The translations under genes were made by a program, and so were the position numbers. A stretch of 64,000 nt of DNA from Atopobium sp. GTDB lineage: Bacteria; Actinomycetota; Coriobacteriia; Coriobacteriales; Atopobiaceae. The notes beneath the pieces are model-generated. The model saw only the letters and a list, made by a program, of their open reading frames with translations, was not told the origin of the DNA and searched no databases. The stretch lies in assembly GCA_015258835.1 (NCBI GenBank), contig JABZHN010000002.1, positions 16,624-80,623 of the forward strand, read 5' to 3'. The first letter of the stretch is position 1. Each line of letters begins with the position of its first letter. Shown here piece after piece: positions 6,490-28,151 of the stretch.

Positions 6490-6690
6490 TGCGACGACGC
6501 CGTGAAGCTCGCTGCGGAGACTGGGCCTCGGAGCTTGCGGAAGCGCGGTCTTCTCGGCAACGCGGGTTTCTCGCCAGGCGTTTGTGTGGTTCGTACGGAG
6601 GAGAAAAATCCAACGCGAGTCGTATGTTTGCAGAGCCTTCTGATGGGTATAAATCAGAAATATATAGAGAGTTTTGAGAGGTTTCAGCAC

Positions 6691-9359: not shown

Positions 9360-9543
9360 TATCGCAGCTAAAACGTACAGTTCTCTTGGTAGAAGCTCTT
9401 GGCGAGAAACCCGTCTTCTCCAAACCGTCACTACACGCACCGGCAACAAAACCGTATACTTGAAATGTTGAAACAAATTGAAGCCGTAAACGTACCAGAT
9501 CGCAAAACGCAGCCTGTAAGCTGCAAGTAATTGAGGGAGAGCC

Positions 9544-15285: not shown

Positions 15286-16302
15286 ATGGCAAGAAATCAG
15301 CGTTCTACCTCTAAAAATACACGCTCCGAGGGCGCTGCAGGCCGCGGTGGAGCAGGTCGCGGCGGCGCAGGTCGCGGTGGCGCTGCAAGTCGCGGCTCCA
15401 AAAAAGCTGCCGACTGGGGCGGTTATTTCGGCGCCAAGAATGGCCAGGGCTCAAAAGGTAGCCGCTCCGCACAAGGCTCACGCGCAGCTCAGGGTACTCG
15501 CGGACAGCAAGGTGCTGGTGGACAGCGAGGCGCTGGCGCTGGACGTCCCGGCAACAAAAAGCCTGCAACTGATCTTATCGAGGGTCGTCGCGCAGTAGCA
15601 GAGGCGCTGACTGTGGGCATTCCTTTGAAGAATGCGCTGGTACAAGCCGCAAGCGGACAGAAGGACCAGGAGATTGAGGCACTTGCACGCCAGCTTGAGC
15701 AGGAGGGTATTCCTGTCGAGCGTGTTGCAAAGCCAGTGCTTGACTCGCTTTCAAGCCACGGCGCTCACCAGGGAGTTATTGTCCGTACACAGCCGTTTGC
15801 CTATGCTGACCTCTCTGAAATCGTTCAGCGTGCGGGTTCTGAAAACGCGCTGGTTGTGGTCTTGGATCACGTCACTGACGAGGGAAACTTTGGCGCAATT
15901 GTAAGAAGTGCCGAGGTAGTTGGCGCAGCCGGCGTTGTTATTGCAAACGCTCGCGCTGCCCGAGTTGGCGTTGGAGCATACAAGACTTCCGCAGGAGCCG
16001 TGCTTCACCTGCCAATCGCTCAGGTTTCTAATCTACCACGCGCTCTTGAAGAGCTCAAAGCTGCAGGTTTTTGGACATGCGGTTCCACCGAGCATGCCAC
16101 CCAGTCCGTGTGGGAGGCTCCTATGGGAGGCCGCCTTGCACTTGTTATGGGCTCTGAAGGTTCAGGAATTTCTCGCCTTATGCTCGAGAAGTGCGATTTT
16201 ACGTGCAAGCTTCCTCAGTTTGGCCAGGTAGAGTCCCTGAATGTTGCTCAGGCAACGACGGTTATGTGCTACGAGTGGCTCCGCAGGACTCAGGAAGCGT
16301 AA
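15286..16302 (+). CDS. rlmB: 23S rRNA (Gm2251) 2'-O-methyltransferase RlmB (SpoU/TrmH family) with an RGG-repeat N-terminal tail
   Basis: The C-terminal SPOUT domain (…VLDHVTDEGNFGAIVRSAEVVGAAGVVIA…) is preceded by a GAGRGG repeat region. Its position after cysS matches B. subtilis yacO. Confidence 0.85.
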   Translation: MARNQRSTSKNTRSEGAAGRGGAGRGGAGRGGAASRGSKKAADWGGYFGAKNGQGSKGSRSAQGSRAAQGTRGQQGAGGQRGAGAGRPGNKKPATDLIEGRRAVAEALTVGIPLKNALVQAASGQKDQEIEALARQLEQEGIPVERVAKPVLDSLSSHGAHQGVIVRTQPFAYADLSEIVQRAGSENALVVVLDHVTDEGNFGAIVRSAEVVGAAGVVIANARAARVGVGAYKTSAGAVLHLPIAQVSNLPRALEELKAAGFWTCGSTEHATQSVWEAPMGGRLALVMGSEGSGISRLMLEKCDFTCKLPQFGQVESLNVAQATTVMCYEWLRRTQEA

Positions 16303-16359
16303 GCCCAGGAAGCCCAGGAAGCGTAAGCCCAGGACGAGTAAGCCCAGGAAGCGTAAGGT
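16288..16359 (+). repeat. 15-nt tandem repeat CAGGAAGCGTAAGCC x about 4.6 spanning the rlmB stop, with four in-frame TAA codons
   Basis: Seen directly: …CAGGAAGCG TAA GCC CAGGAAGCC CAGGAAGCG TAA GCC CAGGACGAG TAA GCC CAGGAAGCG TAA GGT ATG…. The yacP ATG is in the same frame as rlmB. Confidence 0.85.
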
Positions 16360-16938
16360 ATGGCTCAGAAAAAATCGCTGCTTGTAGTCGATGGCTATAA
16401 CGTCATGTTGGCAACTCCTCGCTATGAGGCGCTGCTGGATGAGCGAGGCTCTTCTACGCAAGAAACCGCTGCTGAGAGGGCCTATCACCTCAATACCGAT
16501 CCGTTTTATCGCGCCCGTTTGGCGCTCATTTCTGACGTTGCCACGTTTGCGCAGGGCACTTACGAGGCCGTTATTGTGTTCGACGGCAAGGGAAACGTAA
16601 ACGACGAGCGCCCGGAGCGCAGCCATGCTGGCGTGCAGCTGGTTTTTTCCGAGACGGGGGAGTCCGCAGATAGCGTCATCGAGCGCCTGGTCACGGACGC
16701 GCGAGAGGCTGGTCGAAAGGTATTTCTGGTCACGTCGGACAGGGACATCCGCGCCACGGCTGGCTTTGGCCCCGGCGAGGTCACGCGCATTGCAAGCGCA
16801 TCACTGGTCCACGAGATTTCCCAAGCAGATAACGTTGTCGAAGAGATGCGTCGCGATCAGGTCAGTACGCGCATGACGCTTGAAAACCGCATTTCTCCAG
16901 ATCAGCGCGAGAAACTCTGGAAGCTGCTAGGCAAATAG
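16360..16938 (+). CDS. yacP: NYN/PIN-like ribonuclease, YacP/Rae1 family
   Basis: …LLVVDGYNVM… is the N-terminal NYN motif. The gene order rlmB-yacP is conserved as in B. subtilis. Confidence 0.75.
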   Translation: MAQKKSLLVVDGYNVMLATPRYEALLDERGSSTQETAAERAYHLNTDPFYRARLALISDVATFAQGTYEAVIVFDGKGNVNDERPERSHAGVQLVFSETGESADSVIERLVTDAREAGRKVFLVTSDRDIRATAGFGPGEVTRIASASLVHEISQADNVVEEMRRDQVSTRMTLENRISPDQREKLWKLLGK

Positions 16939-17004
16939 GTGACCAGGTCAGCGTCTCACACGCCTTACGCGCTAATGCGCCCGACGCGCCAATTTGACTG
17001 ACGT

Positions 17005-17137
17005 GCCTGATTTCTGCAAAGAATCTGTAAAATTTGCCTGATAACAGCAAAGAATCGGTGGATTTGCCTGATTTCATCAAAGAATCGGTGGCTCAAATAC
17101 AGATTCTTTGCACTTTTCAGGCTCGCTTTTCAGGCTC
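17005..17137. repeat. Intergenic modular repeat, 118-bp core element copy A (MITE/REP-like)
   Basis: Three about 30-bp direct subrepeats (GCCTGAtttcNNCAAAGAATC[T/G]GT…TTT) end in an inverted arm CAGATTCTTTGCACTTTTCAGGC. It is about 90% identical to copies at 24139..24255 and 37023..37140. Confidence 0.85.
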
Positions 17138-17189
17138 ACTTTTCACGCGGGACTTTGAAGCGCGCGTGAGATTGCCCCTCCAAGGAGCC

Positions 17190-17280
17190 TGATTTTCTCG
17201 CCATATCTGAATAATTTGCCGGAAAAGTTCACCATATCTGAGCTATTTGCCGGTTTTTCTCGCCAAGTCTGAGCTGTTTT
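17190..17280. repeat. Second repeat module (TTCTCGCCA[A/T]GTCTGAGCTATTTGCCGG units), copy A'
   Basis: About 30-bp direct subrepeats. A homologous copy lies at 23961..24066. Confidence 0.75.
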
Positions 17281-17464
17281 ACACAGACATGATGCGGTTT
17301 TCAGGCTGGCTAGACTTGATGGACAGCGCATTTGTACCAAGCTAGCTCCTACAGAAGGAAAGCACTCCTACATGCTGCATCGACCAGTTTGTGGAGAAAA
17401 ATTTCTCGAAAATTGAGACTAGACCAAAGTCAGAAAAGTCTATAGAATATCCTCTGCACTTGAT

Positions 17465-17540
<76 letters not shown>

Positions 17541-17551
17541 CTTGAATTTTC

Positions 17552-17576
17552 AGCCAGGCATTGCCTGGCTTTTTTC
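17552..17576 (+). terminator. Rho-independent terminator after tRNA-Thr
   Basis: AGCCAGGC-attg-CCTGGCT followed by TTTTTT. Confidence 0.7.
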
Positions 17577-17648
17577 GTGCGAATTTTAGGGCATTCGCGA
17601 CGTATCGCGTATGGCTTCTATAGACAACCGTAAAAGCCCGTATGCGTC

Positions 17649-17800
17649 TGGCGAGAAACCCGCTTGGAGTTGTGATGAGAAAATCGGTGGAGTTGTGACG
17701 AGAAAATCGGTGGAGTTGTGGCAAGAAACCCGCTTGAAGTTGTGGCCAGAAAACCGCATGGAATTGTGGCGAGAAAATCGCTTGGAATTGTGGAAAATAT
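17649..17800. repeat. Tandem array, about 6.5 x 23-24 bp units (GGCGAGAAA[A/C][C/T]CG[C/G]TTGGAGTTGT), degenerate
   Basis: Contiguous head-to-tail units with no unique spacers. The first unit begins with the dispersed 14-mer TGGCGAGAAACCCG. Confidence 0.85.
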
Positions 17801-17970
17801 TTGATAAGATACGCCCGGTTGGGTGGATTACGTTGACAAGATTTTTATTCAATCGTAATATTTTCCCGCTTACGAGGTAATACAGAAGTTCAACAAGACT
17901 TCCTGCGTACGTTAAACCGCAAGGTAAACAGCGTACACAATTGCTTCAAGAGTGCTTGAAAACGGTATTT

Positions 17971-18054
17971 GGGGATATGGCACAGCGGCAACTGCGGCGG
18001 ACTGTAAATCCGCTCTCTCTGAGTTCCTTGGTTCGAGTCCAAGTATCCCCACCA
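17971..18054 (+). tRNA. tRNA-Tyr (anticodon GTA), long variable arm
   Basis: GGGGATA/TATCCCC acceptor, anticodon loop ctGTAaa, and a type-II variable arm. CCA encoded. Confidence 0.8.
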
Positions 18055-18055
18055 C

Positions 18056-18131
18056 GCCCGTGTAGCTCAGTAGGTAGAGCACTTCGTTGGTAACGAAGAG
18101 GTCACCGGTTCAAATCCGGTCGCGGGCTCCA
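18056..18131 (+). tRNA. tRNA-Thr (anticodon GGT)
   Basis: Anticodon loop ttGGTaa, T-loop GGTTCAAATCC, and CCA encoded. It lies 1 nt after tRNA-Tyr. Confidence 0.85.
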
Positions 18132-18150
18132 TTTTTCAAGCGGCATTTAT

Positions 18151-18227
18151 GCCGGCGTAGCTCAGCTGGTTAGAGCACACGGCTCATACCCGTGACGTCA
18201 CTGGTTCGAATCCAGTCGCCGGTACCA
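18151..18227 (+). tRNA. tRNA-Met (anticodon CAT), elongator type
   Basis: Anticodon loop ctCATac. The anticodon stem CACGG/CCGTG lacks the three G-C pairs typical of initiator tRNAs. Confidence 0.8.
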
Positions 18228-18333
18228 GACTCTTTACGGCGTACATGTCCTAGACATTTGCGCCGTTGAGTATAAACAGACGTTTTTTCACCACGGTCTA
18301 GCCCGAGGGTTAGTTCCAGAAGGAGGATTGGCA

Positions 18334-19539
18334 ATGGCCAAGGAAAAGTTTGACCGCACAAAGCCACACGTAAACATCGGTACCATTGGTCACGTCGACC
18401 ACGGTAAGACTACCCTTACCGCAGCAATCACCAAGGTTCTCTCTGAGACCGAGGGCTGCAAGGCAGACTATACCGCCTTCGAGAACATCGATAAGGCTCC
18501 AGAGGAGCGTCAGCGTGGTATTACCATTTCCGTTGCTCACGTTGAGTACGAGACTTGGGAGCGCCATTACGCTCACGTCGACTGCCCTGGCCACGCAGAC
18601 TACATCAAGAACATGATTTCTGGTGCAGCTCAGATGGACGGCGCAATCCTCGTTATTGCTGCAACCGACGGTCCTATGGCTCAGACTCGTGAGCACATCC
18701 TTCTCGCACGTCAGGTCGGCGTTCCTTACATCGTCGTCTTCCTGAACAAGTGCGACATGGTCGACGATGACGAGCTCATCGACCTCGTCGAGATGGAGAC
18801 CCGTGACCTTCTCTCCGAGTACGACTTCCCAGGCGATGACCTTCCAATCATCCGTGGTTCCGCTCTCGGCGCTCTTAACGGCGAGGAGAAGTGGGTTGAG
18901 TCCATCCGTGAGCTCATGCACACTGTTGACTCCTACATCCCAACACCAGCTCGTGACAACGAGAAGCCATTCCTGATGGCAATCGAGGACGTCATGACTA
19001 TTTCTGGTCGTGGTACCGTTGCTACCGGCCGTGTTGAGCGTGGTGAGCTCAAGCTCAACGATCCAGTCGAGATCGTTGGTATTAAGCCAACTCAGAACTC
19101 TGTTGCTACCGGCATTGAGATGTTCCGTAAGACCATGGACTTCTGCGAGGCTGGCGACAACGTTGGTATTCTTCTTCGTGGTGTTAAGCGCGAGGACATC
19201 GAGCGCGGTCAGGTTCTCTGCAAGCCTGGTACCGTTACTCCACACAAGAAGTTCACCGGTGAGGTTTACGTTCTTACTAAGGAAGAGGGCGGCCGTCACA
19301 CCCCATTCTTCTCTGGTTACCGTCCACAGTTCTACTTCCGTACAACTGACGTAACCGGCGACATCTACGAGCTCACCGATGCAAACGGTGGCAAGGTAGA
19401 GATGGCTATGCCTGGTGACCACATCACCGTTGGCTGCGAGCTCATTCACCCAATCGCTCTTGAGCAGGGTCTGAAGTTCGCTATCCGCGAGGGTGGCCAC
19501 ACCGTCGGCGATGGCCGTGTTTCCACCGTCATCGAGTAA
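18334..19539 (+). CDS. tuf: Elongation factor Tu
   Basis: [32 protein letters not shown]…. The ATG at 18334 has AGGAGGA 7 nt upstream. It is the only tuf in the window. Confidence 0.95.
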
Positions 19540-19563
19540 CTTCTTTTAAAGTTGCTAACTTGC

Positions 19564-19594
19564 CCGGCGTGCTTTTTGCGCGCCGGGTTTTTTG
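19564..19594 (+). terminator. Rho-independent terminator after tuf
   Basis: CCCGGCG-N-CGCCGGG hairpin followed by TTTTTT. Confidence 0.75.
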
Positions 19595-19723
19595 TCGAGA
19601 AAAAATATGTGAACGCCTAGAGTAATTAGAGAAAAGTATTGACATCTCTGGGTAGTGGGTGCTAACCTAAGCAACCGCGTCACATTTCGAGAATACATCT
19701 CGTGACCGTGTTCAGGAGGATCA

Positions 19724-19873
19724 ATGCGTACACTCGTTACTCTCGCCTGCACTGAGTGCAAGCGTCGTAATTACACTACGGACAAGAACAAGTCCAACAA
19801 CCCAGATCGTATGGAGTTGAAGAAGTACTGCCCATGGTGCCACAAGCACACGGTACATCGCGAGACCCGCTAG
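19724..19873 (+). CDS. rpmG: 50S ribosomal protein L33
   Basis: 49 aa [49 protein letters not shown], with RBS GGAGGA. It is too short for the ORF track. Confidence 0.85.
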
Positions 19874-19891
19874 GCTAGGTGGGTTCGTTCT

Positions 19892-19967
19892 AGGCCAGTA
19901 GCTCCAATGGTAGAGCGGCGGTCTCCAAAACCGTTTGTTGAGGGTTCGAGTCCTTCCTGGCCTGCCA
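19892..19967 (+). tRNA. tRNA-Trp (anticodon CCA)
   Basis: AGGCCAG/CTGGCCT acceptor, anticodon loop ctCCAaa, lying between rpmG and secE as in many Gram-positives. Confidence 0.85.
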
Positions 19968-20038
19968 GATAACTTCACCGGCCTTCCCATAAGGGTTGGC
20001 CGGTTTGTATGTAGGTATAACATCCAAGGGAGCGTAGG

Positions 20039-20401
20039 ATGGCAAATAAGGAGCGCAATAAGAGGAGCGCACGTAAGGCTCGCGCAGAAGAGCGCGCCCA
20101 GCGTGAGTCCCTTCAGGCTGAAGCTACTCCTGAAGCTTCTGCTAAGGCCACTAAGGTCGAGGCAAAGAAGCAGGAGAAGTCCATTCAGCGTAACGCTAAC
20201 CCTGGCTTCTTTGGCCGCCTGGGTGCTTATTTTGCAGGCGTTCGTACAGAAATGCACCGCGTTGTGTGGCCTTCAAGCTCTGAGCTTGCTGGTTTCTCTG
20301 TAGCCGTAATTGCAACAATCATTTTCTTTGGCTTGGTAACTTGGCTGGTTGATACTGGCATTGTTGCTGGTCTCGTCGCCTTTACTGGACTGAGGGGATA
20401 A
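20039..20401 (+). CDS. secE: Preprotein translocase subunit SecE
   Basis: Basic N-terminal tail and a single C-terminal TM helix. Its position before nusG supports the call. Confidence 0.8.
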   Translation: MANKERNKRSARKARAEERAQRESLQAEATPEASAKATKVEAKKQEKSIQRNANPGFFGRLGAYFAGVRTEMHRVVWPSSSELAGFSVAVIATIIFFGLVTWLVDTGIVAGLVAFTGLRG

Positions 20402-20404
20402 TCA

Positions 20405-20950
20405 ATGGCTAAGCGCTGGTATGTAGTTCACACCTATTCAGGTTATGAGAACAAGGTAAAGACAGACCTTGAGCACCGTATTGAGACCTATGGCCTTGAG
20501 CGTGCTGTTGTTGATATTCAGATTCCTACTGAGGAAGTTACTGAGGTCAAGGACGGCGGTAAGCGCGAGACCAAAGAGTCCAAGGTTTTCCCAGGTTACG
20601 TTCTTGTTCGCATGGAGCTGGATGACAATACTTGGGCTGTTGTTCGCAACACCCCAGGCGTAACTGGTTTTGTTGGCATTGACGGCAAGCCAGTTCCTCT
20701 GCGTCGTGATGAGTTCGATAAGATCATGCGTCGCGGCGGTATGAAGACGGGTAGCCCTGTACCTAAGCGCACAGCAACCAATATTGAGGTCGGTCAGGCA
20801 ATTCACGTTCTTTCTGGTCCTCTCGCTGACTTCGACGGAACTGTTTCTGAGGTCAACGCAGAGTCCGGCAAGATTAAGGTTATGCTCACCATCTTTGGTC
20901 GCGAGACTCCGGTTGAGCTCACCATGGATCAAATTTCCCTGATAGACTAG
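20405..20950 (+). CDS. nusG: Transcription antiterminator NusG
   Basis: NGN domain (MAKRWYVVHTYSGYENKV…) plus KOW. Confidence 0.9.
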   Translation: MAKRWYVVHTYSGYENKVKTDLEHRIETYGLERAVVDIQIPTEEVTEVKDGGKRETKESKVFPGYVLVRMELDDNTWAVVRNTPGVTGFVGIDGKPVPLRRDEFDKIMRRGGMKTGSPVPKRTATNIEVGQAIHVLSGPLADFDGTVSEVNAESGKIKVMLTIFGRETPVELTMDQISLID

Positions 20951-21046
20951 TAACTAACGGCTTATCCCGCACTTCTCGTCCCTTGTGGATTGCTTCTCGG
21001 GAGTGCGCGAGAATAGACTCAAACGTATTCAAACAGGAGGCTTAAC

Positions 21047-21475
21047 ATGCCCGCAAAGAAGGTTGTTAACTTTATTAAGCTGCAGATTCCTGCAGGCCAG
21101 GCAAACCCAGCTCCTCCAGTAGGACCAGCTCTGGGTGCTGCACAGGTCAACATTATGCAGTTCTGCCAGGCGTTCAACGCTGCAACTCAGGACAAGGCTG
21201 GCGACATCATCCCAGTCGAGATTTCTGTTTACGAGGATCGCTCCTTTGACTTCGTAACCAAGACTCCTCCAGCAGCTCAGCTCATCAAGAAGGAGCTTCA
21301 CCTCAAGGGTGGTTCTGGTGTTCCTCAGCGCGATAAGGTTGGCCAGCTCTCCCAGGAGCAGCTCACCAAGATCGCTGAGATCAAGATGCCTGACCTCAAC
21401 GCAAACGACATTGAGGCTGCAAAGAAGATCGTCGCTGGTACCGCTCGTTCCATGGGTGTAACCATCGCCGAGTAG
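21047..21475 (+). CDS. rplK: 50S ribosomal protein L11
   Basis: …[21 protein letters not shown]…. Confidence 0.95.
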
Positions 21476-21632
21476 TGTTTACTCCCGTCAGCCATGTGTG
21501 TGGCTGACGGTTGTTTTGTCAGAGCATCCGACGTTAGTGCACGTAGTTGGGTTTCTCGCCAAGAGGGCGTAACTATGGACGGAAGATGCAGGAGTGGGAG
21601 GGCAGACGCCCGCTAACCACAGGAGGTACATA

Positions 21633-22340
21633 ATGCCTAAGCACGGAAAGAACTACAAGAATGCAGTTGCCAAGGTAGACGGTGCAAACCTCTACAGCCC
21701 AAAAGAGGCAGTAACCCTGTCTAAGGAGCTTGCAACTGCTAAGTTTGACGAGACCATTGAGGTAGCAATTCGCCTTGGTGTCGATACTCGTAAGGCTGAC
21801 CAGAACGTTCGCGGTTCTATCTCTCTGCCTCACGGCACTGGTAAGTCCGTTCGCGTTGCAGTCTTCGCAGAGGGCGAGAAGGCCCGCGAGGCTGAGGCAG
21901 CTGGCGCTGACATCGTCGGTGGCGACGAGCTCATCGCAGAGGTCGAGAAGGGCATGCTTGACTTTGACGCAGCAATCGCAACCCCTCAGATGATGGGTAA
22001 GGTTGGCCGTCTTGGTCGCGTTCTTGGTCCTCGTGGCCTTATGCCTAACCCTAAGCTTGGCACCGTTACCATGGATGTTGCAAAGATGGTTAACGAGCTC
22101 AAGGCTGGTCGTGTTGAGTATCGTGCAGACCGTTTTGGTATCTGCCACGTTGCAATCGGCAAGGCTTCTTTTGAGGTCCAGCAGCTTGTTGAGAACTATG
22201 GCGCACTGATCTCCGAGATCATCCGCGTCAAGCCATCCAGCGCAAAGGGTAAGTACGTCAAGACCGTTGCTATTTCCTCTACTATGGGCCCTGGCATCAA
22301 GGTTGATCCAACCAAGGTTCGTAACCTCATGGAGGACTAA
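21633..22340 (+). CDS. rplA: 50S ribosomal protein L1
   Basis: Start at the internal ATG ([11 protein letters not shown]…) with AGGAGG upstream. ORF-track start 21594 is probably leader sequence. Confidence 0.9.
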
Positions 22341-22372
22341 GCTAAACGCTTAGAAGTACCTAGCACGTTTAA

Positions 22373-22405
22373 TCCGGTATCTGCTTGCAGGTGCCGGATT
22401 TTTCT
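22373..22405 (+). terminator. Terminator/attenuator after rplA (hairpin-family member)
   Basis: TCCGGTATCTGC-ttgc-AGGTGCCGGA followed by TTTTT. Confidence 0.7.
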
Positions 22406-22408
22406 TGC

Positions 22409-22809
22409 GGAGTGCGCTCGGCATGCGTCGCGCATGTGACTTGCGGCAAGCGGTGCGCATATGGCATGTGGCTTGCGATGTGCACGTGACTTAAGGCGTG
22501 TGCGTAGCTGCTTAGCCGCCCTTCTCGTCAAATTTTTGTGAAGAGAAAGAAATTGCGCGCTCAACCTTGACTTGGATAGTTTTTTGCTGCACAATATCCA
22601 ACGCAAGACAGACGTCTTGTAGTTGCACGTTCGCTGCCAAAGACAGCCGGCGCCTTGAATCCAAGGCTTAATGGGAATTCCCGCCTGCCGAGGTGGTCTT
22701 GAGATTAGTACATCCAGACCCCGCTTTGGTTGCCAAAGTGGGGTCTTTTCATGTGAGGGCCGCACCTGTTGGCGCTCGTGCCCGAGACATGATAAAGGAG
22801 GTGTACTAC
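22409..22809 (+). promoter_or_regulatory. Long untranslated leader of rplJL, the expected site of L10(L12)4 autoregulation
   Basis: A non-coding leader of about 400 bp before rplJ is typical. It contains three copies of GCA[T/C]GTG[A/G]CTT[G/A][C/A]G at 22433..22494. Confidence 0.5.
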
Positions 22810-23331
22810 ATGCCAGCTCAGTCTAAACTTGATTTGCTCGAGAAGGTTTCCGCTTCTCTCGACAATTCCAAGGGCCTGTTTGTTATCGACTATCGTGGTC
22901 TCTCCGTAAAGGAGACTCAGGAGCTTCGCCGCGCACTTACCGCAGCAGGCGCTCACATGAAGGTCTACAAGAACAACATCGTCAAGATTGCTCTTAAGAA
23001 CGCTGGTATGCCAGAGATTGACGAGATGCTCGCCGGTACCTGCGCATACGTTTTCTATGAGAATGATCCTGTCGAGGCCGCTAAGGTCATCAAGGATCAG
23101 GCCAAGAAGCTCAAGAAAGTTGAGTTCATTGGTGGTATCGCTGATGGTCAGGCACTTACCGCTGACGAGGCAAAGGCTTACGCAGACCTTCCTTCTCGCG
23201 AGGAGCTCATTGCAAAGCTTGTCTTCGTTGTTGCAAGCCCACTTACCGGTATTGCACAGGTTTGCGCTGGTCCAGCTCGTGGACTCGCAACCGCTCTTTC
23301 TGCAGTCGCAGATCAGAAAAACGCTGCATAA
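22810..23331 (+). CDS. rplJ: 50S ribosomal protein L10
   Basis: Start at ATG 22810 (MPAQSKLDLLEK…) with AAGGAGG upstream. ORF 22693 includes leader sequence. Confidence 0.9.
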   Translation: MPAQSKLDLLEKVSASLDNSKGLFVIDYRGLSVKETQELRRALTAAGAHMKVYKNNIVKIALKNAGMPEIDEMLAGTCAYVFYENDPVEAAKVIKDQAKKLKKVEFIGGIADGQALTADEAKAYADLPSREELIAKLVFVVASPLTGIAQVCAGPARGLATALSAVADQKNAA

Positions 23332-23463
23332 GCAACGTTTTGTTGTACCCGCGCATTGGCGCAAACCGCGTGAGAGTGTAGACGCACTTAAACGCACACA
23401 TACAAGCCGGGCTTTTGCCCAGATGCAGTACAAAGGCTGCATCGTTTAAAAAGGAGAATTGAC

Positions 23464-23844
23464 ATGGCTGTCACTAAAGATGAGATCATTGAGGCCCTTA
23501 AAGAGATGCCAGCACTCGAGCTTTCTGAGCTCGTTCACGAGCTTGAGGACGTCTTTGGCGTTTCCGCTGCTGCTCCTGTAGCTGTCGCTGCTGCTCCTGC
23601 AGCTGGTGGCGCTGCTGAGGAGGCAGAGGAGAAGACCAACTTTGACGTTGTCCTCGAGGGCTTCGGCGACAACAAGATCGGCGTCATCAAGGTTGTCCGT
23701 GCTCTTACCAACCTTGGTCTCAAGGAGGCAAAGGAGGTCGTCGAGGGTGCTCCTAAGGCAGTCCTCGAGGGCGCTAAGAAGGAGGACGCTGAGGCTGCTA
23801 AGGCTCAGCTCGAGGAGGCTGGCGCTACCGTCACCCTTAAGTAA
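23464..23844 (+). CDS. rplL: 50S ribosomal protein L7/L12
   Basis: Ala-rich hinge and C-terminal domain …[16 protein letters not shown]…. Confidence 0.95.
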
Positions 23845-23866
23845 GTCCATCCTACATTGCTTACTG

Positions 23867-23898
23867 GAGAGGTCAGACTTCGGTCTGGCCTCTTTTTT
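23867..23898 (+). terminator. Rho-independent terminator after rplL
   Basis: GAGGTCAGAC-ttcg-GTCTGGCCTC followed by TTTTTT. Confidence 0.8.
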
Positions 23899-23960
23899 AT
23901 TTGCCTGGCGAGAAACCCGTGTGCTCGCAAATCGTATGAAGCTGAGGTGCTTTTGCTGCA

Positions 23961-24066
23961 GCCTGAAAAGTGCATCAAGTCTGAGTGATTTGCCGGATTT
24001 TCTCGCCATGTCTGAGCTATTTGCCTGTTTTTCTCGCCTTGTCTGAGTACTTTTGCTCAGACTTGG
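23961..24066. repeat. Second repeat module, copy B' (begins with an inverted copy of the core end GCCTGAAAAGTGCA)
   Basis: Homologous to 17190..17280. It ends in the palindrome GTCTGAG-tacttttg-CTCAGAC. Confidence 0.75.
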
Positions 24067-24138
24067 TGTGCATTTCAGGCTCATAAATCCTGCGTGACAA
24101 CTCATAAATTCCGCGTGACTTACCCCAGCTTCCTCGCA

Positions 24139-24255
24139 CCTGATTTCCTCAAAGAATCTGTAACTTTTGCCTGAAAACGTTAAAGAATCTGTGGATTTGC
24201 CTGATTTTGCAAAAGAATCGGTAGCTCAAATACAGATTCTTTGCACTTTTCAGGC
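24139..24255. repeat. Intergenic modular repeat, core element copy B
   Basis: About 90% identical to 17005..17122 and 37023..37140. Confidence 0.85.
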
Positions 24256-24635
24256 GCACGCAGCAAAAGGCCGGCGCGCCCGGCGAGAAATCCGTGCGCT
24301 CGCACTCACGCCTGGCGAGAAACCCGTGCGCTCGGAGCGCGCTCGGGGCTCGTGGAGCGCCATGCGAAGCGACGCGGCGGGGGAGAGCCGCTCACCGAAA
24401 GCGATTTCTGCCTCCGTGGACCTTCTCCACAAAATCTTCACAACTAGAAAAGACGAGTTAGTTAAGGATTTACCTGCAACATAACGTTTGTGCAGTTGAA
24501 AAACATAAACGCGATAATATAGTCAAAACGTCTTAAAAAATCAAGTGTTTTTCTGTTGACGCGCATTAAAATCTTGACTAAATTACTAGGTTGCGACAAT
24601 TGCCACCTTCCACCCTTTTGAAGGAGGACAACCTG

Positions 24636-27600
24636 GTGTCTACCGCTAAAAAGACTTCCCTCACCACGCCTCAGGCGCATACTGGACGCAGGACGTTCAG
24701 TAAGATTCCCGCAGCTATGGAGCTGCCAAATCTGATTTCTGTACAGAAGGAATCATTTGAGCGCTTTATGGGAGAGGGCCTTGCAGAGTCCTTCGCTGAG
24801 TTCTCGCCAATTGAGAACAGCGCTGGAACCATGCAGGTCACCTTTGGTGACCATCAGTTCGGCGACCCTGCCAATTCAATGGCTGAGTGTCGTGCAAAAG
24901 ACATTTCATATCAAGCACCTCTTTTTGTTGACGTCCGTTTTGTCAACAAAGAGACTGGTGAGATGAAGGAGCAGCTTGTCTTCATGGGTGATTTCCCACT
25001 GATGACTGAGCGCGGTACCTTCATCATCAACGGTTCTGAGCGCGTTGTGGTTTCACAGCTCGTTCGTTCACCTGGCGTGTATTTCTCGTCAGAGATGGAC
25101 AACGGTGTTTTGGTCCACAAGTCTCAGTTCATTCCTGCACGTGGTGCATGGCTCGAGTTTGAGGTTGATAAGCGCGGCCACCTGGTCGTCTCCATTGACC
25201 GCAAGCGTCGCCAGAGCGCTACCGTTTTCCTCCGTGCACTTGGCATCGCTGTTACCGACGACGAGATCCTCTCGCTTCTTGGTGACTCCGATGTTGTTCG
25301 CAACACACTTGAGCGTGATGTTGCAACCACGCGTGAGGATGCACTTATCGAGATTTATCGTCGTCAGCGTCCAGGCGAGCCACCAACTGTTGACTCTGCC
25401 CGTTCTCTGCTTGACGGCCTCTTCTTCAACGAGCAGCGCTATGACCTTGCACGCGTTGGTCGTTACAAGATCAACAAGAAGCTTGAGGAAGAGATTCCTG
25501 CAGACGTTCGTGTCCTTACCAAAGAGGACATCGTTGCAGCTCTTCAGTACCTTCTTGCAGTGCACGCAGGTGATGAGTCTAAGCACCTCGATGACATTGA
25601 CCACTTTGGCAACCGCCGCGTCCGTACCGTTGGCGAGCTGGTCCAGAACCAGTTCCGCATTGGTATGAGCCGCATGGAGCGCGTTGTCCGTGAGCGTATG
25701 GCATCTCAGGACGCAGACGACATCACTCCACAGTCTTTGATCAACATCCGTCCAATTGTTGCTGCAATCAAGGAGTTCTTCGGTTCTTCTCAGCTTTCGC
25801 AGTTCATGGACCAGGCAAACCCACTTGCTGGTTTGACTCACAAGCGTCGTCTCTCTGCTCTGGGACCTGGCGGTCTTGCAGGACACAAGTCCGGCTCCAG
25901 CCGTCGTACCAACGTTCCTACCGCAGTCCGCGACGTTCATAACTCGCACTACTCCCGTATGTGCCCAATCGAGACTCCTGAGGGACCAAACATTGGTCTT
26001 ATCGGCTCCTTGGCACTGTACGCTCACGTAAATGAGTACGGCTTTATCGAGGCTCCTTATCGTAAGGTCACAGGCGGTGTTGTCTCTGATGACATTGTCT
26101 GGATGACTGCAGACGAGGAGGAGAATCACATTATTGCTCCTGCTAACACCCCAATTGACCCTAAGTCTAAGAAGTTTGTTGAGGTTGACGCAGACGGCAA
26201 GATTGTTGATGCAGACCGCGTTATTGCACGTACCCGCGACTTCGACGGTTCCTTCGGTGCACCTGCACAGGTTCCTGTTGAGGACGTTGACTACATGGAC
26301 GTTTCTCCACGTCAGCTTCTCTCCGTCGCAGCTAACCTCATTCCATTCCTTGAGCACGACGACGCAAAGCGTACCCTCATGGGTGCAAACATGCAGCGTC
26401 AGGCAGTGCCTCTGATTCAGTCCCACGCTCCATTTGTTGGAACTGGTATGGAGGGCCGCGCAGCTCAGGACTCTGGTGAGCTTATTTGCGCAGAGTTTGC
26501 CGGCGAGGTCACCGAGGTTGATGCAGCTCACATTGTCATCTACTCCGATGAGCACGGTTCTCAGCGCTACGATCTTCCTAAGTACGAGCGCTCCAACCAG
26601 TCCACTTGCATCAACCACCGTCCAATCGTCACTGTTGGACAGCAGGTCGAGAAAGGCCAGCCAATCGCAGACGGTCCATCTGTTGACCACTCTGAGCTGG
26701 CACTTGGTGCAAACCTTACCGTTGCTTACATGCCATGGGAAGGCTACAACTACGAGGACGGTATTATCGTCTCCGAGCGTGTTGTTCAGGAAGACCTTCT
26801 GACCTCCGTTAACATTTCCCGCCACGAGATTGATGCTCGCGATACCAAGCTTGGTGCTGAGGAGATTACCCGCGAGATTCCAAACCTTGGTGAGGACATG
26901 CTCGCAAACCTCGACGATGACGGTATCATCCGCATCGGCGCTGAGGTTGGCCCTGGCGATATTCTGGTTGGTAAGGTCACTCCTAAGGGTGAGACTGCTC
27001 TGACCGCAGAAGAGCGCCTGCTTCGCGCAATCTTCGGTGCTAAGGCACACGATGTTCGTGATACTTCCCTTAAGATGCCACACGGCTCCTATGGCCGCGT
27101 TGTTGACGTTGTCCGCTTCAGCCGTGAGGCTGGAGACGACCTGCCTCCAGGAGTAAACGACCTGGTCCGCGTCTTTGTTGCTCAGCGCAGAAAGATCCAG
27201 CAGGGCGATAAGATCGCTGGTCGCCACGGTAACAAGGGTGTTATTTGTAAGGTTCTCCCAGTTGAGGACATGCCTTACATGGCAGATGGTACCCCAGTAG
27301 ACGTTATTCTCGACCCACTGGGCGTTCCTTCCCGTATGAACGTTGGTCAGCTGCTTGAGTGCCATCTTGGTTGGGGCGCTGCACACGGTTGGGATGACGA
27401 CGACGCAGATTCTAAGCGTTACGTTGAGGGTCCAATTCCTGTTGCAACACCACTCTTTGACGGTGCTACTGATGAGTCCGTTGCAGAGATTGTTCGCCGC
27501 ACCAACATCAATATGATCAACAAGGCTCTCAAGGAGTACGGCGAGGACATGCGTGAGGAGTTTGTTCCACAGCTCAACGAGCGTGGTAAGACTACCCTCT

Positions 27601-28151
27601 ACGATGGTCGTACCGGCGAGGCATTCAAGAGCCCAATTACCGTTGGTGTTTCTTACATTCTGAAGCTCGGCCACATGGTTGACGATAAGATCCACGCACG
27701 TTCAACTGGTCCTTACTCTCTTGTTACCCAGCAGCCTCTGGGTGGTAAGGCACAGTTCGGCGGTCAGCGCTTTGGTGAGATGGAGGTTTGGGCACTGTAT
27801 GCATACGGTGCTGCTAACGTCCTCCAGGAGATCCTCACCGTTAAGTCTGACGATACCAACGGCCGTGTTAAGACCTATGAGTCCATTGTTAAGGGCGAGA
27901 ACATTCCTACTGCTGGAATTCCTGAGTCCTTCAAGGTTCTGGTCAAAGAGATTCGCTCCCTGGCACTTGACATTGAGCCAATCTCCTATCGTAAGCGTGC
28001 AAATACCGCAAAGGTCACCGATCCTGAGGAGAAGAACGCTGTTGAGATCCTCAACGACCTTGGCTTCACTGAGGTAACCGCTTCCGACCTGTCCCAAGAC
28101 GCTGAGGGTGCATCCGCACTTGTAGGCGACGCGACCACCGATAAGGAGTAG
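24636..28151 (+). CDS. rpoB: DNA-directed RNA polymerase subunit beta
   Basis: Full RpoB conserved blocks. The start is placed at GTG 24636, in frame, with AAGGAGG 8 nt upstream. ORF-track ATG 24591 lacks an RBS. Confidence 0.9.

Follow-up and report, generated by a model that had tools for sequence, protein, structure and literature searches.

A stretch of 64,000 nucleotides from an Atopobium sp. contig (GenBank assembly GCA_015258835.1, contig JABZHN010000002.1; hereafter the window) was found to carry, in the spacer between its genes for tRNA-Thr(UGU) and tRNA-Tyr(GUA), a degenerate tandem array of six 23–24-bp units. This feature is probably best understood as a DNA-level, copy-number-variable minisatellite (variable number tandem repeat, VNTR), resized by slippage or unequal recombination of units that contain a dispersed core. 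The array has a defined structure and position, belongs to a series of alleles differing in unit number, and is neither coding nor a structured RNA; the mechanism of resizing and any binding of a protein are inferred. The locus is an ordinary bacterial VNTR that had not been described previously: the searchable literature, including the genome papers on Lancefieldella parvula, gave no description of these repeats.

Positions 17649–17793 were covered by a single call of Tandem Repeats Finder (period 24, 6.1 copies, 81% matches, score 164, the top score of the window), and a second repeat search recovered the same array family. The units and the sequence that follows them were as follows:

17650–17791, plus strand: minisatellite, six head-to-tail units of 24, 23, 23, 24, 24, and 24 bp
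17650–17673, plus strand: unit 1
17674–17696, plus strand: unit 2 (23 bp)
17697–17719, plus strand: unit 3 (23 bp)
17720–17743, plus strand: unit 4
17744–17767, plus strand: unit 5
17768–17791, plus strand: unit 6, the promoter-proximal unit GGCGAGAAAATCGCTTGGAATTGT, by segmentation the sole unit found in all 70 related sequences
17792–17807, plus strand: AT-rich linker GGAAAATATTTGATAA, which joins unit 6 to the promoter box; not significantly unit-like

The unit consensus was GGCGAGAAA(A/C)(C/T)CGCTTGGAGTTGT, with a mean pairwise identity of 0.80 between the units of the array; the inner units carried degenerate cores (GAYGAG and GGCMAG), and the unit had no dyad symmetry. The six units quoted in the initial annotation of this DNA read exactly as given there, and since they abut directly in the sequence and in the Tandem Repeats Finder call, with no spacers between repeats, the array was rightly set apart from CRISPR. 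Its count of about 6.5 units was correct for the six; the additional half unit, the trailing GGAAAATATTTG..., matched the consensus at 10 of 24 positions and was no more unit-like than shuffled sequence (P = 0.54). A possible decayed unit in the 24 nt to the left of the array, with 14 of 24 matches, was likewise not significant (P = 0.06). Because neither flank was significantly unit-like, we count six units rather than 6.5. Scored with a position matrix derived from 184 related units, the four 24-bp units of the window reached 37–41 bits, and 20 Markov-simulated windows gave 0–1 matches of at least 10 bits; the same matrix found no other copy of the full-length 24-bp unit in the 64-kb window.

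Relatives were collected with the YacP-type NYN protein encoded just upstream of the array (16360–16938), which retrieved 80 loci from species-representative genomes. Some 55 loci, carrying the label Atopobium or Lancefieldella parvula, were 95–98% identical, and the remainder (Olsenella, Atopobium, and other Atopobiaceae) were about 50% identical. Judged by these identities, the window belongs to the Lancefieldella (Atopobium) parvula group. The type strain of the organism has a single rRNA operon (PMC3035223). A further 34 loci came from metagenome contigs scanned for exact matches to the promoter segment, and the spacer between tRNA-Thr and tRNA-Tyr was extracted from 70 sequences, corresponding to 69 distinct spacers.

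Spacer lengths fell into classes of about 309, 335, 358, 380, 405, 428, and 451 bp, that is, 1–7 units in steps of 23–24 bp, which bears out the variability between strains that had been suggested from the window. One, two, three, four, five, six, and seven units were present in 23, 4, 4, 5, 25, 7, and 1 of the 69 distinct spacers, respectively. Isolates and a closed genome differed from one another in the same manner: strain DNF00906 carried 3 units, ICM42b 4, JCVI-JB-Lp32 (closed) 5, and BS2 6. The unit types held their order along the array (GGCSAGAAACCCGCTTGGAGTTGT, then the 23-bp GACGAGAAAATCGGTGGAGTTGT, and so on to the last, GGCGAGAAAATCGCTTGGAATTGT), indicating an old, degenerate array whose alleles are set apart by whole units gained or lost. 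Where the upstream spacer was quite different (e.g., in L049), the allele re-converged with the others at the promoter-proximal unit. Relatedness was measured over a flanking 3.2-kb cysS-YacP segment, which replaced tuf as a marker because the latter was too conserved for the purpose. Unit number did not track similarity in this segment: in each well-populated identity bin (0.90–0.98), about 0.2–0.3 of the pairs agreed in unit number; the closest relative (L012, 97.0% identical over the marker) had one unit vs. six in the window.

The six-unit allele of the window was identical to the array of a metagenome contig (L091), and two more pairs of identical arrays were recovered from independent samples (L029 and L060; L043 and L090), which argues against an assembly artefact. 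Together with the degeneracy of the units, these independent recoveries make misassembly of short reads unlikely.

The surroundings of the array comprised two sets of transcription signals:

17420–17448, plus strand: promoter-like site of tRNA-Thr(UGU), TAGACC-17-TAGAAT (promoter scan)
17465–17540, plus strand: tRNA-Thr(UGU), upstream transcription unit (ARAGORN; Rfam tRNA, 69 bits)
17552–17576, plus strand: intrinsic terminator of tRNA-Thr(UGU), an 8-bp stem (17552–17570) with 6 GC pairs, then TTTTTT
17808–17818, plus strand: GATACGCCCGG box, 14 nt 5′ of the −35 hexamer, entropy 0.012
17833–17861, plus strand: sigma-70-type promoter TTGACA-17-TAATAT (promoter scan, 10 of 12 matches)
17971–18227, plus strand: tRNA-Tyr(GUA) (17971–18054), tRNA-Thr(GGU), and tRNA-Met(CAU) (ARAGORN, Rfam)
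18328–19539, plus strand: tuf (EF-Tu), directly 3′ of the tRNA cluster (Pfam GTP_EFTU, D2, D3)

The flanking genes were thus those named in the initial annotation, tRNA-Thr (TGT) and tRNA-Tyr. Its placement of the array directly after a terminator and inside a tRNA operon did not hold: the array starts 73 nt 3′ of the tRNA-Thr(UGU) terminator and lies outside any single operon, because a terminator lies upstream and a separate promoter downstream. It sits between two transcription units, in the untranscribed gap from terminator to promoter, and spans about −219 to −78 relative to the predicted tRNA-Tyr start site. The promoter at 17833–17861 almost certainly serves tRNA-Tyr, tRNA-Thr(GGU), and tRNA-Met, so that the downstream tRNAs have their own promoter, a point that had been raised as a check; tuf probably belongs to the same unit. 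After tRNA-Tyr, the gene order was tRNA-Thr(GGT), tRNA-Met, tuf, tRNA-Trp, secE, nusG, and rplKA, with rpoBC further downstream. The position of tuf after the tRNA cluster, and not after fusA, is like the thrU-tufB arrangement of E. coli.

The tRNA-Tyr promoter region and the upstream terminator were strongly conserved. From the box through the −10 hexamer, mean column entropy was 0.012–0.018 among 57 distinct related sequences, and the tRNA-Thr(UGU) terminator was nearly invariant (0.020), compared with 0.22 for the unique left spacer and 0.18 for the last repeat unit, which is therefore conserved no more than the unique flanks. The position and sequence of the tRNA-Tyr promoter were kept in 11 other Atopobiaceae loci, and other genera of the Atopobiaceae likewise conserve the box, −35, and −10 elements before tRNA-Tyr. 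In the other genera compared, the array was absent upstream of tRNA-Tyr; a conserved single ATGTGCAGGAATCGTGGGGAGG-like element occupied the linker position (equivalent to 17792–17807).

That the array is transcribed, as a 5′ leader, a small RNA, or processed read-through from tRNA-Thr, is highly improbable. Its neighbours on either side are tRNA genes of one strand, and transcription could conceivably read through the terminator, but the strong terminator upstream, the promoter downstream, and the freely variable number of units speak against it. Searches of positions 16000–25000 against Rfam 15 (E ≤ 1) returned tRNAs, the L10 leader, and sub-threshold noise, with no match within the array, and the fold energy of the array was no better than that of shuffled sequences on either strand (z = −0.85 and −0.55). 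A structured RNA or leader was rejected on these two grounds; arrays of identical length together with a structured-RNA leader, which the initial annotation had named as evidence against its reading, were not what was found. The L10_leader match (22619–22758, 46.7 bits vs. a gathering score of 44), upstream of rplJ, is ordinary and expected. An 89-aa open reading frame (ORF) spans the array in the window, and a small repeat protein was rejected because this frame stops after 7–18 codons or loses its start in most alleles. Intrinsic curvature was rejected too: the ratio of end-to-end to contour length was 0.893 vs. 0.932 ± 0.043 for shuffles (rank 76 of 440 windows), approximate values from a wedge model (phased A-tract controls, 0.34–0.63).

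The 5′ half of each unit is a core, GGCGAGAAA(A/C)(C/T)CG, which recurs well beyond the array. The initial annotation had described the array as built on a dispersed 14-mer, and this was confirmed: the shared 14-mer pattern had 36 matches at ≤3 mismatches vs. 5.5 expected. GGCGAGAAA itself occurred 25 times in the window, 16 of these within 10.5 kb of non-coding DNA, where 0.1–0.4 were expected, an over-representation of about 40–130 times. The non-coding copies followed the consensus yTGGCGAGAAACCCGt, a sharply bounded 15-mer with unconserved flanks that was found on both strands, typically shortly after terminators (lysS, clpC, tRNA-Thr, rplL, and rpsJ). Copies outside the larger repeat clusters included:

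6562–6577, minus strand: solitary core after the lysS terminator
9399–9414, plus strand: solitary core TGGCGAGAAACCCGT, following the clpC terminator at about 40 nt
33205–33294, no strand assigned: inverted core, with the third GATACGCCCGG box (rpsL promoter) about 65 nt downstream of it
37843–37869, no strand assigned: inverted core (GGCGAGAAACCCAAGGAATTTT on the minus strand) abutting the second GATACGCCCGG box, before rplC

A solitary core between rplK and rplA was set aside as uninformative, the whole spacer being conserved there, probably as an L1 leader. An extracytoplasmic function (ECF) sigma factor promoter, GAGAAAC-N16-CGTC, was rejected on inspection, as the downstream element was inconsistent among the listed sites.

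The word GGCGAGAA(A) was over-represented in the genes of the window too, on both strands (nine coding copies of the 9-mer GGCGAGAAA vs. about 0.6 expected, and four of TGGCGAGAAAC vs. 0.05), as would be the case if the array were a cluster of DNA-uptake-type or other genome-wide signal words. We regard that explanation as next to negligible. Nine of ten sense-strand coding occurrences were in frame as Gly-Glu-Lys/Asn codons, most of the nine coding copies of the core being either Gly-Glu-Lys codons or antisense, the density of the core was nine times higher in non-coding than in coding DNA, and Olsenella-like relatives had the word in coding DNA only and without the extended consensus, which indicates codon bias. 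The coding excess is thus mostly Gly-Glu-Lys codon choice, which largely explains the enrichment that had made a DNA uptake sequence a candidate; the extended matches are not accounted for by it. Coding sites at about 1621, 56907, and 57240 encode (S/A)GEKL(V/I) with near-identical DNA, (T/G)CTGGCGAGAAACTC.

In three other inter-operon spacers (16990–17330, 23900–24335, and 36980–37190) cores were combined with further modules, namely 30-, 31-, and 13-bp units:

17004–17133, no strand assigned: 30-bp module, three direct units GCCTGATTTCnnCAAAGAATCGGTGGATTT and one inverted copy
17187–17279, minus strand: 31-bp module, three units with inverted core (GATTTTCTCGCC), core matches at 17189 and 17251
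23903–24335, no strand assigned: rplL-rpoB mosaic, with a core directly after the rplL terminator (23905–23920), 31-bp units (23979–24047), a 30-bp module (24141–24256), and tandem cores at 24282 and 24314
36983–37187, no strand assigned: rpsJ-phosphatase mosaic, with perfect 15-bp inverted cores ACGGGTTTCTCGCCA ... TGGCGAGAAACCCGT on either side of a 30-bp module

The 30-bp module at 17004–17133 shares AATCGGTGGA(G/T)TTG with the 23-bp units of the array. Each of these spacers differed between relatives. The YacP-tRNA-Thr mosaic (30-, 13-, and 31-bp repeats, 16990–17330; loci L041 and L054) measures 427–588 bp in most relatives; L041 lacks the mosaic (430 bp) and has a spacer of 91 bp. In the rplL-rpoB spacer, which varied between genomes (L094, L095, L102, L108, L111, and L115), L095 had precisely lost about 430 bp between the outer direct cores of the mosaic, with one hybrid core left; L094 lacked one 31-bp unit, and L108 and L115, with one or two additional units (about 40 bp each), had a single core where the window has the tandem pair. 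The rpsJ-phosphatase spacer (36781–37228; L116–L125) held three unrelated cassettes in different human-oral contigs, and each of them returned to the shared sequence precisely at the right-hand core, T(G/A)GCGAGAAACCCGTAGAAT (window 37172–37193). Whole units are thus gained and lost in the core-bounded DNA of this lineage in general. Several contigs of short-read metagenome-assembled genomes (MAGs) end a few hundred bp past the YacP gene, which suggests assembly breaks at repeats.

These mosaics raise the alternative that the array arose as a side product of a mosaic-repeat family (MITE-, NIME-, or BIME-like), mobile or recombining, in which the core would be a terminal or recombination site and the array a pile-up of ends. 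The perfect inverted cores around the 30-bp module at 36983–37187, the direct cores bounding the rplL-rpoB mosaic with precise loss between them in L095, the three cassettes ending at the same core, the missing YacP-tRNA-Thr mosaic of L041, and the breaks of MAG contigs at repeat regions are all in its favor. In addition, two human-oral contigs classed as viral in IMG/VR (L145 around 3276 and L155 around 8499; GC about 0.50) have a terminator hairpin followed at once by TTTGGCGAGAAACCCGT, the same arrangement as after rplL in the window (23870–23920). Nevertheless, we judge this origin quite unlikely for the array. The array has no terminal inverted repeats; the 36983–37187 element has inverted cores, but no target-site duplication was seen there and its alleles are not simple empty sites. 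No transposase or recombinase was present among the genes of the window, and full 24-bp units occurred nowhere else in it. Similarity to plasmid and phage collections was limited to the tRNA-Thr gene, with nothing in the array, and the other 34 of the 36 viral contigs with the 15-mer had single matches in sequence of unrelated base composition, as expected by chance, on which ground a phage att site was also rejected. Plasmid iterons or a phage origin were dismissed for the same lack of matches and for the context, which is one of chromosomal housekeeping genes with no replication gene near the array.

Exact copies of the GATACGCCCGG box numbered three in the window, all on the plus strand (17808–17818, 33284–33294, and 37859–37869), whereas about 0.03 per window would be expected by chance for an exact 11-mer. 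Each lay 8–14 nt 5′ of a TTGAC(A/C) −35 element and preceded the tRNA-Tyr, rpsL, or rplC operon. The box was also seen in loci L058, L064, L068, L070, L071, and L078–L080 and, from these occurrences, looks like a family-wide promoter element of Atopobiaceae for translation genes. Positions 33368–38741 of the window have an unusual gene order, in which rpsJ follows rpsL-rpsG-fusA, and rpsJ and rplC are parted by two terminators, the repeat mosaic, and a low-molecular-weight phosphotyrosine phosphatase gene (37229–37762); rplC has its own box-type promoter. Long antisense ORFs (868–931 aa) opposite rpoB, rpoC, and fusA (25089–27695, 29171–31966, and 33789–36503, minus strand) are almost certainly non-coding by-products of codon composition.

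The position of the array upstream of such a promoter allows for a functional reading, in which the units would be binding sites for a putative Atopobiaceae protein and unit number a rheostat on the tRNA-Tyr/Thr/Met-tuf promoter. We regard this as possible but doubtful. The array occupies −219 to −78 of a strong, conserved promoter, its proximal unit is universally retained, variability within units is position-specific, the core is a sharply bounded 15-mer on both strands with the enrichment in non-coding DNA given above, and a core lies ≤75 bp upstream of all three box promoters. The single ATGTGCAGGAATCGTGGGGAGG element of other genera lies in the same place and is loosely unit-like. Against this stand the frequency of one-unit alleles (23 of 69) and the lack of lineage structure in unit number, the last unit being no more conserved than unique flanks, the degenerate inner cores, and a spacing of 23–24 bp that would put successive sites on different helical faces. 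Predicted curvature was ordinary, and gene conversion among units could yield the shared variable positions. The resemblance of the unit to the element of other genera was weak (individual P 0.04–0.8; combined P 0.02, from non-independent sequences), so that homology between the two is suggestive only. A broader proposal would make TGGCGAGAAACCCGT the recognition site of a putative DNA-binding or recombination protein that marks operon boundaries (after terminators, before promoters) in Lancefieldella and its phages, with variable stacks of sites acting as heritable rheostats on the tRNA-tuf promoter; we consider it unlikely.

Comparison with known repeat systems placed the array itself among bacterial VNTRs, such as the minisatellite loci used in multiple-locus VNTR analysis (MLVA), with which it shares head-to-tail, degenerate, intergenic units and whole-unit differences between alleles (here 1–7). 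Both features that define a VNTR, a tandem unit of about 10–100 bp and differences in copy number by whole units, were found. VNTRs are well known in bacteria from MLVA and from typing with mycobacterial interspersed repetitive units (MIRUs), and the remark in the initial annotation that minisatellites are unusual in bacteria was overstated. MIRUs are 40–100 bp long and lie between genes inside operons, with small ORFs coupled to the neighbouring genes. The array resembles them in that part of its repeat sequence recurs at other intergenic loci; it differs in its 23–24-bp units, its location in a gap between terminator and promoter, the absence of a conserved ORF, and the dispersal of the 14-mer core only and not of the whole unit.

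Taken as a system, the repeats come closest to mosaic extragenic repeats of BIME, NIME, or BOX type. BIME/REP elements of E. coli, NIME of Neisseria (RS units flanked by dRS3), and pneumococcal BOX elements with their variable number of boxB likewise consist of short modules in varied order and orientation between operons (here 24-, 30-, 31-, and 13-bp modules and a 15-bp core), with differences in module number between strains and recombination at a shared short repeat, as observed here. The core, however, lacks dyad symmetry and thus the palindrome or hairpin of REP and dRS3, the array lacks a stable RNA fold, unlike BOX, and no associated transposase or recombinase was identified here.

In E. 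coli, multiple FIS sites lie upstream of thrU(tufB), tyrT, and rrn P1; Fis is a proteobacterial protein. The array is like these upstream activating sequences (those of thrU(tufB), tyrT, and rrnB P1) in having repeated sites at roughly −60 to −220 of a strong promoter that drives a tRNA-plus-tuf operon, with the proximal site being the conserved one, and its position agrees with that of such sites, which lie at about −60 to −150 relative to an rRNA or tRNA promoter. It differs in that FIS sites are not tandem duplicates and are not known to vary in number between strains; a protein that binds the array would be putative. Promoter contingency repeats, such as the TAAA tracts of Neisseria nadA and the 7-bp repeats of Haemophilus hmw, are also variable tandem repeats upstream of a promoter that could tune expression. 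They have 1–9-bp units with a high frequency of change and act on surface or virulence genes, whereas the array has degenerate 23–24-bp units before core translation genes. CRISPR arrays and plasmid iterons share short direct repeats of about 23 bp with the array, which has no spacers, no rep gene, and no plasmid similarity.

For the preferred reading, a copy-number-variable minisatellite, the following mechanism can be proposed. Each 23–24-bp unit joins the dispersed inter-operon core to a ...TTGGAGTTGT tail. Replication slippage, or unequal recombination of one unit with another, would add or remove whole units and so lengthen or shorten the array; the other core-bounded mosaics of this genome may be deleted or swapped by the same process. 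Only the promoter-proximal unit is fixed; the distal units would be dispensable, and if the latter have any effect at all, they may add weak extra sites for a core-recognising protein upstream of a strong stable-RNA promoter.

Several points weigh against this reading. Slippage is read solely from the whole-unit allele series, and all compared genomes were at least 1.6% diverged (2–5% in flanking genes), so that the series reflects differences between strains and not rates within a strain. Short-read MAGs could, in principle, mis-assemble repeats. Variation among orthologous units was concentrated at positions 2, 4, 11, and 18, positions 1, 5, 7–9, 12, and 23 being invariant (chi-square p = 0.0017, state counts). 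This position-specific variability, together with the occurrence of cores within 75 bp upstream of the box promoters of tRNA-Tyr, rpsL, and rplC, hints at sequence-specific constraint and hence at a real function rather than a purely passive repeat.

In practical terms, the spacer, which spans about 310–450 bp between two tRNA genes and contains 1–7 units, is usable as a PCR-sized VNTR marker and could help to separate L. parvula lineages in oral and gut samples, and the repeats would account for the breaks at these spacers in short-read MAGs of the group. For the biology of the group, the array points to an undescribed modular family of intergenic repeats in a commensal of the Coriobacteriia, the source being an oral bacterium, and it brings to light a conserved GATACGCCCGG box in promoters of Atopobiaceae translation-machinery operons. 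The locus also offers an entry point to the putative core-binding factor. If it were true that unit number alters promoter strength, this would be a rare case of repeat-number control of core translation genes rather than of surface antigens.

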